Source: a virus (taxonomy: Duplodnaviria > Heunggongvirae > Uroviricota > Caudoviricetes). Taken from it: 5,803 nt of DNA. Below the pieces are notes generated by a model that saw only the letters and a program-made list of their open reading frames with translations, ran no database searches and was not told the DNA's origin. The position numbers and the translations under genes are program-made. Below, piece by piece: positions 1 to 5,748 of this stretch. The stretch lies in IMG/VR virus record IMGVR_UViG_2537562152_000014; one strand, 5' to 3'. Position 1 is the stretch's first letter. Each line of letters begins with the position of its first letter.

Positions 1-287
1 CTGTGACTGCGCATACGGGCCACCAGCAGAGGCGGCATTGCCTTTTCGATCGCCGGTAACAGAGCCTGCATTTTTTCAACTGCATCAGGGGTGTCTTTCT
101 CTATCCAGCGGAAAATTTTCTGGGTATTGCGAGCCAGGGCTTCCGGATGGCTGTCGTCGTACAGTTCAGGAAACGTCATACCCAACTCAAAATAAGCCTG
201 GGTTATTCCAGCTGCCGGAACTTTTTCGCCATCAGGACGCGCCCAGGCATTCATCGCCATGCGGATGTGTTCATGCTTGATTTTCAT
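1..287 (-). CDS. YdaT-like / CII-position prophage early regulatory protein (partial; C-terminus lies beyond the window start)
   Basis: Minus-strand frame is open from ATG at 287-285 to position 1 (95 codons, no stop); it is absent from the ORF track because no stop falls in the window. Translation begins MKIKHEHIRMAMNAWARPDGEKVPAAGITQAYFELGMTFPELYDDSHPEALARNTQKIFRWIEKDTPDAVEKMQALLPAIEKAM. A G-run SD (GGGGGG, complement of 292-297) lies 4 nt upstream. The start overlaps the last 17 nt of the cro-like gene. The MKIKHEHI N-terminus and the position directly after cro match my recollection of Rac YdaT; this is not verified by alignment. Confidence 0.55.
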   Translation of the reverse strand, partial: MKIKHEHIRMAMNAWARPDGEKVPAAGITQAYFELGMTFPELYDDSHPEALARNTQKIFRWIEKDTPDAVEKMQALLPAIEKAMPPLLVARMRSH

Positions 288-513
288 GAATCCCCCCTTG
301 GTTAGAAGGCGGATTATGATCAGAATCGGGAATGACAACCGTCGGTATGTGTAACTCATATTTGAGCGCCCCGGCAGTGACTGCCTGAATTAGCAACGCC
401 CATTTCCACGGAACGTCTTCCCCCCACATGCTGACTGTGGTTTTTGACGTTCCTAGAGCGGCGGCTGTTTTAACAACTCCGCCAAAATAGCCTAATACTT
501 CTGATTTTTTCAT
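271..513 (-). CDS. Cro-like HTH transcriptional regulator (DicC/YdaS-like)
   Basis: ORF-track ORF 271..561 trimmed to the ATG at 513-511, which has a GGAG SD 6 nt upstream; the upstream ATGs at 561 and 525 have none. The 80-aa product MKKSEVLGYFGGVVKTAAALGTSKTTVSMWGEDVPW... has an HTH-like core and the LxYFGG opening typical of DicC/YdaS-type Cro proteins. It is divergent from the CI-type gene, the classic genetic-switch layout. Confidence 0.7.
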   Translation of the reverse strand: MKKSEVLGYFGGVVKTAAALGTSKTTVSMWGEDVPWKWALLIQAVTAGALKYELHIPTVVIPDSDHNPPSNQGGIHENQA

Positions 514-604
514 GAGTCGCTCCATAAAACTGAACGCCAAAAGTTTAATAATCAAAACCAAAGAAAGTCAAGAAACAAAACCATCTGTGTTTTAAAATCA
601 AAAC
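514..604. promoter_or_regulatory. Divergent promoter/operator region between cro-like and cI-like genes (OR/PR/PRM analogue)
   Basis: 91-bp AT-rich intergenic between divergent repressor genes. CAAAAC occurs three times at 23-bp spacing (553-558, 576-581, 599-604) within longer related units (550-559, 573-582, 596-604). An inverted repeat TGTTTT-N6-AAAACA at 588-605 overlaps the cI start codon. A candidate -10 TAAAAT (593-598) sits 6 nt before the cI ATG. A candidate minus-strand promoter for cro has -35 TTGACT (complement of 566-571) and a -10-like TATTAA/TTAAAC (complement of 543-550). Confidence 0.5.
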
Positions 605-2548: not shown

Positions 2549-2885
2549 TTTATCCTCCATTGAGGTTCTGGGTTAAAAATGGAGACCAACACGCTGTCAC
2601 GTGTGGTCGTGCGCCGGACACGGATAAGAATCCGGTACTGACAGTTTACTGAAAGGATATTTCCCTGAAAAGTCAGTGCATAACGCGAAAGCGTACGGCG
2701 AAGCTCTTTCCCTTAGAAGGCTTGTCGTTAGATTTCTTCGAACGTGCGCTTCCGGTTGTGGCACTCCGCGAAATGGCGCGGCGGTAAGTATGGCGGGGTT
2801 ATTCCTTCCCCATTGAGGACACCGGGTTGTCAGGTTGACCATACGCTTAAGTGACAACCCCGCTGCAACGCCCTCTGTTATCAAT

Positions 2886-2938
2886 TTTCTGGTGACGTTT
2901 GGCGGTATCAGTTTTACTCCGTGGCTGCTCTGCCGCCC
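2886..2938 (+). ncRNA. dicF: DicF small regulatory RNA (ftsZ translation inhibitor)
   Basis: TTTCTGGTGACGTTTGGCGGTATCAGTTTTACTCCGTGGCTGCTCTGCCGCCC is near-identical to the 53-nt DicF sequence of E. coli K-12 as I recall it, with possibly one substitution. It is followed by a T-run (2939-2943) and lies immediately upstream of dicB, as in the K-12 dicB operon. Confidence 0.75.
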
Positions 2939-2943
2939 TTTTT
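2901..2943 (+). terminator. DicF 3' stem-loop / intrinsic terminator-like hairpin with T-run
   Basis: GGCGG (2901-2905) can pair with CCGCC (2933-2937), enclosing an internal structure, and is followed by TTTTT (2939-2943). Transcription must read through at some frequency because dicB lies downstream. Confidence 0.5.
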
Positions 2944-3112
2944 AAAGTGAATTTTGTGATGCGGTGAATGCGGCTAAGCGCACGCGGAACAGTTAAAACC
3001 AAAAACAGTGTTATGGGTGGATTCTCTGTATCCGGCGTTAATTGTTAACTGGTTAACGTCACCTGGAGGCACCAGGCACTGCATCACAAAATTCATTGTT
3101 GAGGACGCGATA

Positions 3113-3301
3113 ATGGAAACGTTATTACCAAACGTTAATACGTCTGAAGGTTGTTTTGATATTGGTGTTCTGCTCAGTAACCGGGAGTTTACTGAAGATG
3201 CCATTAACATGAGGAAATATGAGCCTTATCTGCTCAATGATAATTCCATACTTTCCCGAATTGCTCTTCTTGAACTTGGTATTTTCGGAGAACGTCAATG
3301 A
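3113..3301 (+). CDS. dicB: DicB-like cell division inhibitor (MinC-dependent FtsZ-ring inhibitor)
   Basis: ORF-track ORF 3008..3301 trimmed to ATG 3113, which has GAGGA (3101-3105) 7 nt upstream. The 62-aa product METLLPNVNTSEGCFDIGVLLSNREFTEDAIN... matches the N-terminal half of K-12 DicB (MKTLLPNVNTSEGCFEIGV...) as I recall it, with a more divergent C-terminal half. It sits directly downstream of DicF. Confidence 0.85.
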   Translation: METLLPNVNTSEGCFDIGVLLSNREFTEDAINMRKYEPYLLNDNSILSRIALLELGIFGERQ

Positions 3302-3578: not shown

Positions 3579-4796
3579 ATGAGCACTGATAAAGAAGAAT
3601 TTGCGCTATATTGCGAAGCAAAAAATGACAAAGTCAGAAAACGTCTGGGAATTAAAGGTGGTTTTTACTGGACTACAGCAAAAAAATTATCTGTTGCCAT
3701 CTCCCGCTGCATTACCGCAATGGATGACAACGATTATGATGAAGACGACTTTAAAAAACCCGTTCGCGTCCATTTACCCGTTGTGAATGACCTTCCACCT
3801 GAAGGCGTGTTTGATACCGAATTCTGCAACCGATACGAAAAAGGCGGGGAAGATGGCATTACAATGGTATTTATCGCGCCCTCTCCCTCCGTGCAGGAGA
3901 AACCAGCCAGTACTGACAATACCAACGTCAACGGCGAAGACATGACGGAGATTGAGGAGAATATGCTCCTGCCGGTTTCTGGTCAGGAGCTGCCCATTCG
4001 CTGGCTTGCGCAACACGGCAGCGAAAAACCAGTAACGCACGTTGCACGGGAAGAACTTCAGGCATTACATATAGCACGGGCGGAAGAACTGCCGGCTGTT
4101 ACTGCCCTGGCCATTTCTCACAAAACAAAGCTGCTCGACCCGCTGGAGATTCGCGACCTTCACAAACTGGTACGCGACACTGACAAAGTTTTCCCTAATC
4201 CCGGTAATTCAGACCTGGGACTGATAACTGCTTTTTTCGAGGCATACCTGGACGCTGACTACACTGATCGGGGTCTGCTGACAAAAGAGTGGATGAAAGG
4301 AAATCGTGTTTCGCGTATCACCCGTACGGCTTCCGGTGCAAATGCCGGTGGCGGGAACAAAACCGATCGCAATCCGAATTTAGTACACACCTTCGATACG
4401 CTGGATGTGGAGATTGCAGCAGCCACACTTCCGATGGATTTTAATATTTATGAAATTCCGGGCAGCGTTTATCGTCGCGCAAAAGAAATCGTCCTGAAAA
4501 GAGAAAGTCCGTTCAAAGAATGGTCCGCAGCACTTCGCGCAACCCCGGGTATTCTGGACTATTCCCGCGCCGCTATTTTTGCACTTATCCGGAGCGCTCA
4601 CCCTGAGTTTTATCACTACCCGGGACGCCTTCAGGGGTATATCAACGCCTACTTAACGGAGACTGATCACGAGAACCCCAGCAAGGAAACTCTCACTGCT
4701 GCACGACATACACCGGAAAAAGATTCTGCAAAAACTTTTGTTCAGGAGACGCTGAAAGATACCTGGGAGTCTGCTGACGAGTGGTTTGTTCGCTAA
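3579..4796 (+). CDS. Hypothetical prophage early-left protein (405 aa), possibly an intact homologue of the gene after ydfD in Qin-type prophages
   Basis: Long ORF with GAGG (3568-3571) 7 nt upstream of the ATG. It contains an acidic patch ([10 protein letters not shown]) and a Gly-rich segment ([15 protein letters not shown]), with no TM segment. Sampled stretches are about 50 percent GC. Function not recognisable. Confidence 0.7.
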
Positions 4797-4799
4797 TTA

Positions 4800-5665
4800 A
4801 CGAGTAAAATCGACCCTGTACACGATTCTGTGTAAATGCCTTTTCTCAGAAGTGACCGTCCAGGCGGTCACCGAACTCGATAATAAAGCGGCTCATTGCC
4901 ATACGCCAGTCCCGCAGTGGCATCGTCCATTTCTGTGAAGCCGCCTGGATTGCCAGCCACACGACCTTTTTCACTGAGTCATCCGTCGGGAACACCTTGC
5001 GTTTTTTGATGGCATGCCGGATTACGCTGTTCAGCGACTCGATGGCGTTGGTTGTGTAGATGACTTTGCGGATATCTGCCGGGTAAGCGAAGAACATCGC
5101 CAGGTTGGTCCAGTTTGCCTGCCAGCTCCGGCTTATCTGCGGGTAGCGACTGTCCCAGGCGCTGGCGAACGCTTCCAGCGCCTGCTGGCCTGCTTCTTCT
5201 GTGGGGGCCTGGTAGATGGCTTTCAGGTCGCGGGTGACGGCTTTGTAGTCCTTCCAGGAAACGAACCGCAGGCTGTTGCGCACCATATGCACGATGCACA
5301 GCTGGATGCGGGCTTCCGGATACACCGTGTTGATAGCGTCCGGGAAGCCTTTCAGCCCGTCGACACAGGCTATGAGAATATCGTTCAGGCCGCGGTTTTT
5401 TAGTTCAGTCAGCACATTGAGCCAGAACTTCGCTCCCTCGTTTTCGGCCAGCCACATACCCAGTAACTCTTTCTGGCCTTCGATATTGATACCCAGTGCG
5501 AGGAATACGGATTTATTGATTACGCGACTGTCCTGCCGAACCTTCAGGACAATACAGTCAAGATAAACAATGGGATAGACCGCATCCAGTGGCCGGTTTT
5601 GCCATTCGACTACCTGCTCCATAACGGCATCGGTGACCTTCGATACCAGCGCCGGTGAGACATCA
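4800..5665 (-). mobile_element. Remnant of an IS256-family insertion sequence (3' part only); boundaries approximate
   Basis: Transposase homology spans roughly 4846-5665. The IS end should lie in the 49-bp gap between the 405-aa gene stop (4796) and the transposase stop (4846). No terminal inverted-repeat partner can be identified within the window. Confidence 0.45.
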
Positions 5666-5748
5666 GGTAAGCGTACAGCCTGAACCGTCTGGTCAGAATC
5701 TGACGAATTAGACAAAGTGGTGCCCACCAAATAAGTAGTGGGAACCAA
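4846..5748 (-). CDS. IS256/mutator-family transposase, C-terminal DDE-domain portion; probably a 5'-truncated remnant
   Basis: The product contains IS256-family hallmarks: DVSPALVSKVTDAV, the first Asp in YPIVYLDCIVLKVRQD, the second Asp in ILIACVDGLKGFPDAI, and the Glu in TTNAIESLNSVIR, followed by the KKRKVFPTDDS tail. The track start at 5748 is a TTG and the frame stays open to the window end, but residues upstream of about 5665 do not resemble the family in any minus-strand frame. Confidence 0.75.
   Translation of the reverse strand: MVPTTYLVGTTLSNSSDSDQTVQAVRLPDVSPALVSKVTDAVMEQVVEWQNRPLDAVYPIVYLDCIVLKVRQDSRVINKSVFLALGINIEGQKELLGMWLAENEGAKFWLNVLTELKNRGLNDILIACVDGLKGFPDAINTVYPEARIQLCIVHMVRNSLRFVSWKDYKAVTRDLKAIYQAPTEEAGQQALEAFASAWDSRYPQISRSWQANWTNLAMFFAYPADIRKVIYTTNAIESLNSVIRHAIKKRKVFPTDDSVKKVVWLAIQAASQKWTMPLRDWRMAMSRFIIEFGDRLDGHF

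Follow-up and report, generated by a model that had tools for sequence, protein, structure and literature searches.

A conserved 115-nt RNA domain upstream of DicF in a Qin-type prophage, shared with phage P1 and Shiga-toxin phages

The 337-nt region at positions 2549-2885 of the viral record IMGVR_UViG_2537562152_000014, situated upstream of the small RNA (sRNA) DicF, was analyzed by sequence comparison. The whole stretch of 5,803 nt, hereafter the window, is a Qin/DicF-type lambdoid prophage with 100% identity to E. coli O157:H7 chromosomes. The comparative evidence reveals more than chance, for a part of the region only. This part, called here the core, is an autonomous RNA domain of 115 nt (2755-2869) carried by the DicF strand, and it is probably the functional part of the region. 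The core is under selection at the RNA level, folds as a four-way junction with a pseudoknot, is found in the early-operon leaders of very different phages and occupies a slot in which other inserts can replace it. Among the explanations put forward in an original prediction for the region, the independent structured RNA is the closest to the evidence, the covarying domain of 115 nt being present in phages without a DicF seed.

The core, recognized with 153 bits by the covariance model R1 on the plus strand, is composed of three arms, P2, X+P3 and P4, and a closing helix, P1, as follows.

2755-2762 GUUGUGGC / 2862-2869 GCUGCAAC, plus strand: P1, acceptor-like closing helix
2766-2781, plus strand: P2, hairpin CCGCG-AAAUGG-CGCGG in D-arm position (strands 2766-2770 / 2777-2781)
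2783-2823, plus strand: arm X+P3
2783-2785 GGU / 2821-2823 ACC: helix X
2794-2798 CGGGG / 2808-2812 CCCCA: P3, with a variable loop
2824-2860, plus strand: P4 hairpin, a perfect 9-bp repeat (2824-2832 GGGTTGTCA / 2852-2860 TGACAACCC)
2835-2837 / 2848-2850: P4b, 3-bp extension of P4
2788-2793 GUAUGG / 2839-2844 CCAUAC: pseudoknot, whose 3' strand is inside the P4 loop

The perfect inverted repeat with a 19-nt loop noticed in the original prediction is P4 and had been placed exactly. A perfect inverted repeat of at least 9 bp was found in 15 of 500 dinucleotide shuffles (3%). The linkers between P1, P2, X and P4 measure 3, 1, 0 and 1 nt in a cloverleaf topology. The core has the short-linker four-way junction and the closing helix abutting the last hairpin that are expected for a tRNA-like fold, and its four helices pair in at least 94% of the alignment cells.

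An exact pattern of the P4 loop was used to gather homologues from viral contigs and from genomes representing species, and 81 distinct sequences, many of them closely related, were obtained from Escherichia, Shigella, Citrobacter, Trabulsiella, Erwinia, Izhakiella, P1-like elements and one phage deposited under an Actinobacillus host. The helices were derived by reading the alignment. When 60 sequences were aligned with MAFFT, double changes were observed in 11 of the 36 pairs versus 4.2 +/- 1.4 in column shuffles, and 94.9% of the cells could pair versus 35-54% with slid partners. With the model-based alignment of the 81 sequences, helix X and the pseudoknot included, double changes reached 13 of 39 pairs (5.2 +/- 1.5 in shuffles) and the pairing cells 96.1% (37-51% with slid partners). 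The covariation check that had been proposed for the whole region was thus positive for 2755-2869 only.

Compensatory changes were distributed over most of the fold. Three of the eight P1 pairs show double changes (CG to UA, GU to UA and, for the outermost one, GC to UG) with 94% of the cells pairing, as illustrated by the replacement of GUUGUGGC/GCUGCAAC by GUUGUGGU/ACCACAAC. The same holds for three of the five pairs of P3 (91% of cells pairing), one of which was seen as GC, CG, AU and UA, and for five pairs of P4, where GGGUUGUCA/UGACAACCC becomes GGGUAACCA/UGGUUACCC in Izhakiella and GUUGCCA/UGGCAAC in phage P1. Helix X is changed from UA to CG in three sequences of the P1-like subgroup. 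A UA to CG change is also found in the pseudoknot of P1-type sequences, GUAUGG/CCAUAC being GCAUGG/CCAUGC in phage P1. The pairs of the P1 helix are mostly U-G (45 of 81) and G-U (51 of 81); since G-U pairs would be A-C mismatches on the other strand, the RNA is assigned to the plus strand, that of DicF.

Some copies of the core are rearranged at the closing helix. At three loci (L016, L037 and L082), a deletion that brings the upstream ACGCGAAA (window position ~2683) next to the 5' strand of P2 has eliminated the 5' strand of P1, so these copies are probably unable to form the closing helix, as judged from their sequence. In the phage deposited as Actinobacillus phage vB_Apl-pPE4 (L005, 3110-3300), the P1 3' strand and the terminator module are tandemly duplicated and the P1 5' strand is missing; this locus otherwise resembles an E. 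coli Qin-type prophage.

The segment ~2755-2877 is conserved by itself across very different phages, the identity of the core being 88% in the cdtI, Ayreon and Stx2c-converting phages and 78-82% in phages P1 and P7, a range that also applies to over 400 P1-like plasmids. It lies within an early-operon leader, between a repressor-controlled promoter and terminators, in phage P1 (Pban), in the Stx2c and Ayreon phages (PL) and in the Qin dicB operon. In phage P1, the core begins ~20 nt after the C1-controlled Pban promoters and is followed by an unrelated strong terminator, then by tRNA genes, tciABC and ban. In the Stx2c, cdtI and Ayreon phages, it is located ~280 nt into the PL leader with a linker of only ~10 nt; the Stx2c phages and Ayreon have a near-consensus PL promoter next to cI, and a terminator after the core is followed by 120 nt more of leader. 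The flanks of the core are different in phage P1, cdtI and the Stx2c phages, and the downstream hairpin has no DicF seed. A terminator made of a GC-rich hairpin and a U tract was found within ~9-60 nt 3' of the core in all 24 downstream-sequence classes. There is one core copy per phage and none in the PR operon. The 337-nt region itself was matched in 4317 of 5426 complete E. coli genomes, usually with several copies per genome, which are nearly always chromosomal.

The ~280-nt leader between PL and the core (L151 3715-3995, L193 2700-3015) is common to E. coli Stx2c/Ayreon phages and a Klebsiella phage, with conserved blocks such as GUAUGGCACAUGC.GCGUUAGC, GGAAUGUGCAAG and CAACGAUGAG.GCAUU. 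In L151, it holds a DicF-seed-like UCUGGUGACGUU at ~3793-3804. The whole untranslated leader of 580 nt may be structured. On the PR side, copies of the C4 antisense RNA and isrK (Rfam 60-80 bits) are present on the minus strand of L151 (1539-1727) and L195 (2538-2726), and the phages with those copies also carry the core in PL.

A BLAST match confined to the 5' flank of the core led to Klebsiella phage Kp4866-6 and Edwardsiella phage EPP-1. In both phages, the flank (a small hairpin, then GUGCUCUCUUC) and the P1 helix are as in the core loci and the inserts are quite different. Viral contigs were scanned with the 5' flank and the P1 5' strand as query, and 124 loci were recovered. The core occupies the slot in 57 of them, a second type of insert does so in 26, and at least 20 types were distinguished altogether. 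The inserts are multi-branch folds closed by P1, whose first hairpin comes after (G)AAU and whose last hairpin abuts the P1 3' strand; a terminator of the DicF type lies downstream. Rfam has no match for most insert types. One insert (L262) is recognized by the Rfam tRNA model with 42.1 bits (gathering score 29) and has canonical D and T arms with a 69-nt expansion of the anticodon arm; another (L287) reaches 48.2 bits with STnc100 (gathering score 47). Among DicF-type loci sharing the flank located after the terminator, 36 of 138 do not have the exact P4-loop pattern. About four of these carry a variant core, and the remaining ones have a 5-nt loop in its place (GGUUGU-AAAUA-ACRAC). Because the slot shows both swaps and this 5-nt loop, the core is seen as one head among several that can replace each other within a conserved RNA cassette.

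Inserts within the closing helix GUUGUGGU ... RCCACAAC were located in L193 (3016-3140), L194 (~3016-3175), L195 (~5076-5200), L262 (8173-8299) and L287 (6707-6913). The core-less loci L152 (~2640-2680), L153, L154, L155, L158 and L159 have kept the flanking stems, the terminator and kil/dicB; in L155, L158 and L159, the site is 330 nt upstream of the AAAGTGAATTTT flank.

No family of Rfam 15 corresponds to the core: only DicF and noise were obtained, whether the whole window was scanned (E-values up to 1) or the segment 2735-2945 (E-values up to 10). The Rfam scan suggested in the original prediction therefore gave nothing within 2549-2885, where the DicF model (RF00039, 52 nt, gathering score 48 bits) had no match either, and DicF itself next to it. 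No account of the core domain was found in the literature, whose coverage was incomplete, and earlier descriptions are possible. In the DicF papers, the region is referred to either as precursor sequence or as a long untranslated stretch (bioRxiv 10.1101/2023.04.14.536235; PMC5069750). In the phage P1 record, a 'dicF-like region' overlapping the 3' half of the core is alone marked. A 2026 preprint, in which PasD is connected with STnc100 and both are presented as Hfq-bound prophage sRNAs, does not mention the core element.

The core is contained in a transcript already known. A 190-nt form of DicF with an RNase III-dependent 5' end was detected by Northern blot and primer extension; it accumulates upon inactivation of RNase E, which yields the 53-nt form, and no internal promoter was found for this long DicF (bioRxiv 10.1101/2023.04.14.536235). 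The following elements of the window are concerned.

2608-2688, plus strand: Qin-type leader, 'module A', conserved, structure weakly supported
2689-2751, plus strand: probable RNase III hairpin (RNAalifold consensus; duplex energy -19.8 kcal/mol)
2870-2886, plus strand: AU-rich single-stranded linker of 17 nt, with RNase E dependence from the literature
2887-2939, plus strand: DicF sRNA and its intrinsic terminator (Rfam RF00039, 75 bits at 2887-2938)
2936-3145, plus strand: STnc100-like multi-branch element between DicF and dicB (2940-3101 with its closing duplex; Rfam 34.7 bits, gathering score 47)

DicF is found where the original prediction had placed it, downstream of the region. Counted back from its 3' end (2939), 190 nt lead to ~2750, a position mapped by length only. 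This end precedes P1 by 5 nt and belongs to the 3' strand of the stem 2689-2701/2738-2751. As the end maps just before P1, the long DicF consists of the core, the 17-nt linker and DicF (~2750-2939), which is contiguous with DicF, on the same strand, and has its 5' end ~137 nt upstream of that of the 53-nt form. It is the same transcript as in the published accounts (Faubladier 1990; Ragunathan 2023), but the core fold, its covariation and its presence in phage P1 and Stx2c-type phages are not described in the DicF papers. The RNase E cut giving the 53-nt form is placed at 2886/2887, at the 3' end of the linker.

In the hairpin 2689-2751, a 13-bp stem is formed by AAGCGUACGGCGA (2689-2701) and UCGAACGUGCGCUU (2738-2751), the apical part (2702-2737) being variable. 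This predicted stem is likely to be the RNase III substrate. A shorter 72-nt form of DicF is produced by RNase III cleavage on the 3' side (PMC5069750). Its 3' end (2958) is contained in a 27-bp duplex (2940-2966/3075-3101; -32.2 kcal/mol) that closes the STnc100-like element and is, in the modeled fold, the probable RNase III site. A processing stem for RNase III is expected to offer ~11 bp or more of duplex around a mapped end; the two predicted stems are in agreement with the published 190-nt and 72-nt ends, and neither covaries: only wobble or one-sided changes, and no compensatory ones, were found for the 13-bp stem by RNAalifold in 18 Qin-type leaders. An alternative 5' RNase III site, the duplex 2737-2760/2969-2988, is possible in read-through RNA but its 3' strand is outside the terminated 190-nt RNA; since the latter cannot hold the 2969-2988 strand, the local hairpin 2689-2751 is the better candidate. 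The hairpins listed as RNase determinants in the original prediction are not those now retained, which are this stem for RNase III and the linker for RNase E.

Related arrangements were noted around these elements. In the STnc100-like element, the first hairpin AAUGCGGCUAAGCGCACGCGG and the last hairpin CACCUGGAGGCACCAGG match slot inserts of other phages. The alternative leaders of L155, L158 and L159 contain an apparent H-type pseudoknot (CCACC..GCCCGG..GGUGG..A-rich..CCGGGC) ~150-210 nt 5' of the terminator, and other Qin-type leaders a similar arrangement (ACCAC..GCCUG..GUGGU..UUAAAA..CAGGC).

The reading that we favour, with a probability of roughly 40%, is that of a prophage sRNA excised by RNase III and belonging by its architecture to the class of STnc100 and PasD, in which the core is the structured 5' head and acts post-transcriptionally. 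The core would be transcribed from the early-left promoter, which is under repressor control. Where the prophage is of the Qin type, RNase III would excise the RNA from the polycistronic transcript at the hairpin 2689-2751, with the DicF terminator as its 3' end, and the stable 190-nt long DicF would have the core as its 5' 'head'; cleavage of the AU-rich linker by RNase E at 2886/2887 would then free the 53-nt DicF. The central arm is locked to the P4 loop by the pseudoknot, with P1, P2 and P4 in the place of the acceptor, D and T arms. The core would belong to a set of interchangeable multi-branch heads (STnc100-family, tRNA-like and several unnamed types), all closed by a common helix and followed by a DicF-type terminator. 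The compact tRNA-shaped body would most likely stabilize the RNA and set the RNase cut sites, and would probably be bound by a host factor recognizing a tRNA-like shape. The tRNA ancestry, the post-transcriptional or trans action and any binding partner of the core are those we infer. This sRNA-head reading is preferred because the core exists in vivo within a stable 190-nt RNA, because it is conserved where the DicF seed is absent, because its slot-mates include an Hfq-bound sRNA family (STnc100) and because its presence at some loci, its absence at others and its replacement within one slot are what accessory cargo shows.

Several observations weigh against this reading. P2 pairs in 96% of the cells with wobble changes only and zero compensatory ones, and the P1 helix is not evident in the core of phage P1 itself. 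The exact P4-loop pattern used as anchor biases that loop to invariance; at loci found with another anchor (L156, L178 and L162), single changes were present in the P4 loop. The z-scores of the minimum free energy (MFE) are weak, with -1.36 on the plus and -2.2 on the minus strand for the whole region and -0.8 for the core alone, and thermodynamic evidence was for this reason dropped as an argument for structure; the 'highly structured' character announced by the original prediction receives no support from folding energy. The core scores nothing with the Rfam tRNA and STnc100 models at E-values up to 10, and ARAGORN detected 0 tRNA genes in any locus. As the core has no match with either tool, the proposed tRNA ancestry rests on shared position, closing helix and topology. 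A mere stability head would not require such conserved loops. Finally, the core is always just 5' of a terminator in repressor-controlled leaders, a location with which a control of transcription in cis fits equally well.

Such a control, the main rival explanation, could be exerted by a cis-acting RNA antiterminator comparable to HK022 put. As it emerges, the core would bind RNA polymerase and make it read through the adjacent DicF-type terminator and any later terminators or Rho sites of the long early-left leader, which is untranslated, thereby standing in for the N protein in N-less lambdoid phages and likewise serving the ban operon of phage P1. Early antitermination in N-less lambdoid phages is unexplained and put-like RNAs are possible there (PMC12315714, 2025), which makes the core a candidate answer to how these phages pass their early terminators. 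This possibility, unlikely on balance while deserving attention, is supported by the constant position of the core, on the operon strand and 9-60 nt before a strong intrinsic terminator, beyond which lie dicB/kil, recE and xis/int, or ban in phage P1, whose ban transcript spans more than 1.5 kb of untranslated RNA. In addition, no recognizable N gene was found in the left operons of the window, cdtI, Stx2c, mEp460 and Ayreon. By tblastn with a panel of lambda-type and 933W-type N only, N was found within 6 kb upstream in 0 of 82 core-bearing loci and was detected in 4 of 28 loci without the exact core pattern (phiSTEC1589, PhiR5_2, POCJ13 and L157), which encode N and have lost the core. The 5-nt loop is present in each of the four loci for which an N gene was annotated or detected. 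The anticorrelation was not retained as proof of antitermination: the four N-encoding loci all fit, but ~20 core-less loci also have no detectable N, so the association is one-way and confounded by shared ancestry. A single copy per phage, with none in the PR operon, also argues against this role, as does a pattern scan in which no further clear intrinsic terminators were seen downstream in mEp460 and the window. The STnc100-type sRNAs and tRNA-like RNAs of the slot resemble interchangeable cargo and not an essential regulator. The core and put are alike in belonging to early-operon leaders of N-less lambdoid phages, before terminators, and in requiring no phage protein if the core acts in cis, but put, an RNA-only processive antiterminator blocked by mutations in the beta-prime zinc-binding domain, is ~70 nt long with two stem-loops and a short triplex and is present in two copies (putL and putR), whereas the core has 115 nt and one copy, and the R1 model found no match in the HK022 immunity region (L006).

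A role limited to DicF is rather improbable. As a scaffold for processing and stability, the structures would direct the RNase III and RNase E cuts and mask the seed until cleavage. The RNase III stem and the RNase E site of the linker are consistent with it, and so is GUUAUCA (2878-2884) in the linker, which can pair with the DicF seed UGGUGAC (2891-2897) to give a hairpin present in the MFE fold. An RNase E cut in an AU-rich trailer after an acceptor-like helix also resembles the processing of tRNA precursors. But the core is 78-88% identical, with compensatory changes, in phage P1, cdtI and Stx2c phages that have no DicF seed, and more than one fifth of the DicF-type loci hold the terminator and the flanking stems without the core. 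The processed DicF precursor of the original prediction is thus borne out by the published 190-nt RNase III/RNase E species, but a plain leader does not suffice to explain the core. A riboswitch is very improbable; in this case a host metabolite or signal would be bound by an aptamer made of the four-way junction and the pseudoknot and would set termination at the adjacent terminator. The helices of the core covary and its junctions and loops are conserved as in an aptamer, it occupies a 5' leader with a neighbouring terminator, and its size and complexity resemble those of four-way-junction riboswitches such as SAM-I. However, no conserved alternative pairing between core and terminator was seen by eye in a non-exhaustive inspection, the linker varies from 9 to 60 nt, the phage P1 terminator is unrelated, the regulated genes have no common metabolic theme and a 5-nt loop or unrelated RNAs can take the place of the core in its slot. 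The last explanation, a protein-coding or DNA-level feature, such as a minus-strand protein or the promoter or operator of the convergent 69-amino-acid (aa) gene, is scarcely credible for the core. The minus-strand open reading frame (ORF) 2597-2884 (95 aa, TTG start) exists as announced and the 69-aa gene does have its ribosome-binding site and a probable promoter within 2549-2607, but the ORF has no PHROG or Pfam match and is open over the homologous segment in only ~44 of 153 loci. Indels in P3 are not multiples of three, and the substitutions preserve plus-strand RNA pairs, G-U included.

Other candidates were rejected. The plus strand contains ORFs that start with GTG or TTG and have 36-46 codons (2542-2652, 2676-2816 and 2744-2854), so the earlier statement that none exceeds ~20 codons holds for ATG-started ORFs only. 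The mini-ORF from ATG 2790 to TGA 2816 (MAGLFLPH), considered as a leader peptide, differs in length and frame in the P1-type and L042-type homologues and is probably not translated as a conserved peptide, according to these sequences; it overlaps a pseudoknot strand and P3, and GGCGG precedes it. A boxA-like reading of the 5' flank GUGCUCUC was abandoned, no second copy being found in the Ayreon PR operon and the motif count being at chance. The possibility of a miniature inverted-repeat transposable element (MITE) or other mobile DNA was discarded, the copies being at one homologous prophage position and the substitutions keeping the RNA pairs, G-U included. The same applies to an antiterminator pairing via GGCGGUA, repeated in the core junction and the terminator 5' arm, as this 7-mer is missing from the phage P1 terminator.

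The core was also compared with known RNAs. The layout of STnc100 (RF02076) and PasD is like that of the core: the closing helix is followed by 'AAU', a C-rich hairpin of 5 bp and central arms, the last hairpin abuts the 3' strand of the closing helix, and a terminator comes next; the overall order (head, single-stranded linker or seed, terminator) is likewise the same. The core differs from STnc100 by having no match with its model, four arms and a pseudoknot, and another sequence. With tRNA (RF00005), it shares the four-way junction and the order of acceptor-, D-, anticodon- and T-like arms, and the tRNA-like insert of L262 uses the closing helix and slot of the core. Unlike in tRNA, the T-like arm has 9 bp with a 19-nt loop, there is neither variable loop nor CCA, the central arm is interrupted with a variable loop, and the pseudoknot replaces the contact between D-loop and T-loop. 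The C4 RNA of phage P1 and the CI RNA of P4 (C4, RF01695) are, like the core, small stable RNAs excised from the leader of a repressor-controlled phage operon, but they are unrelated in sequence and structure. No C4 match was found in the region; C4 and CI act by antisense pairing with targets in the operon that encodes them, and a comparable target was not found for the core.

DicF is among the oldest known bacterial sRNAs, and the 137 nt that precede it have so far been handled as precursor sequence. About 115 of them form a complex RNA domain under selection, missing from Rfam, in a region present in most E. coli genomes. The core is a concrete new RNA common to DicF loci, phage P1 and Shiga-toxin phages, and the slot for interchangeable heads would unite DicF, STnc100/PasD and the tRNA-like RNAs in one architectural class of prophage sRNAs. 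A more speculative proposal, which we consider improbable, is that the core and the other slot inserts are tRNA-derived mimic RNAs, expressed first after induction and engaging a host factor that recognizes the tRNA shape. They may be decoys against tRNA-targeting defence nucleases or toxins, or may form an RNA-only device modifying RNA polymerase in N-less phages. If so, this would represent a novel kind of RNA-level interaction between phage and host, and the many heads on one constant acceptor-like helix would be the record of an arms race or a specificity code.

The 337-nt region as a whole is made of four parts: 2549-2607, the module A leader (2608-2688), the hairpin 2689-2751 and the core. 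The original observation is partly confirmed; the first part belongs to the neighbouring 69-aa gene, which has its ribosome-binding site and a probable promoter there. Its GC content (51.3%, and 57.4% in the core) is higher than that of the flanking genes (40.4%), as first stated. Homology to the K-12 Qin prophage begins only at ~2608, and that to other prophages at ~2596-2608; in K-12, the homologous 280 bp are the gap between ydfC and dicF. The segment 2549-2607 travels together with the genes encoding the 216-aa and 69-aa products, which are cargo. On its minus strand, the 69-aa gene has a GGAGG ribosome-binding site at 2558-2554 and probably a weak promoter-like pair recognized by motif (-35 GTGACA, 2599-2594; -10 TTTAAC, 2576-2571). 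The promoter or leader of the convergent gene proposed in the original prediction is thus limited to this left edge.

Module A is restricted to Qin-type prophages and was not present in the cdtI-type and phage P1 contexts. Its hairpins are GCCGGA/UCCGGY (~2612-2636) and CCCUGA-AAAG-UCAGKG (2663-2678). With RNAalifold on 18 diverse sequences, a double change was found in one pair, and the covariation term (+0.33 kcal/mol) does not speak for the fold. The two shorter repeats reported earlier are present, each with one arm displaced by one base: TGACAG lies at 2639-2644 (not 2640-2645) and CCGGA at 2614-2618 (not 2615-2619).

The neighbouring genes of the window are the following.

271-561, minus strand: cro-like gene
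605-1243: cI/LexA-like repressor gene
1536-1688: YdfA-like DUF1391 gene
1688-2338: 216-aa gene, phrog_2151, no Pfam match, role unassigned
2339-2548 (coding sequence), minus strand: convergent 69-aa gene, phrog_4274, no Pfam match, role unassigned; the 5' region of the gene, 2549-2607, follows from the RefSeq coding sequence extending to 2548 in the identical O157:H7 record and from the PHROG match
3113-3301: dicB, followed by a ydfD-like gene
3579-5748: truncated recE-like gene, then an IS256-family transposase fragment (minus strand)

The place of ydfB and ydfC in K-12 Qin is taken in the window by the 216-aa gene and the convergent 69-aa gene. Because the recE-like gene is truncated and followed by the IS256-family transposase fragment, the prophage is considered defective downstream; the recE-like product has 405 aa in the window versus ~1040 aa in L159.

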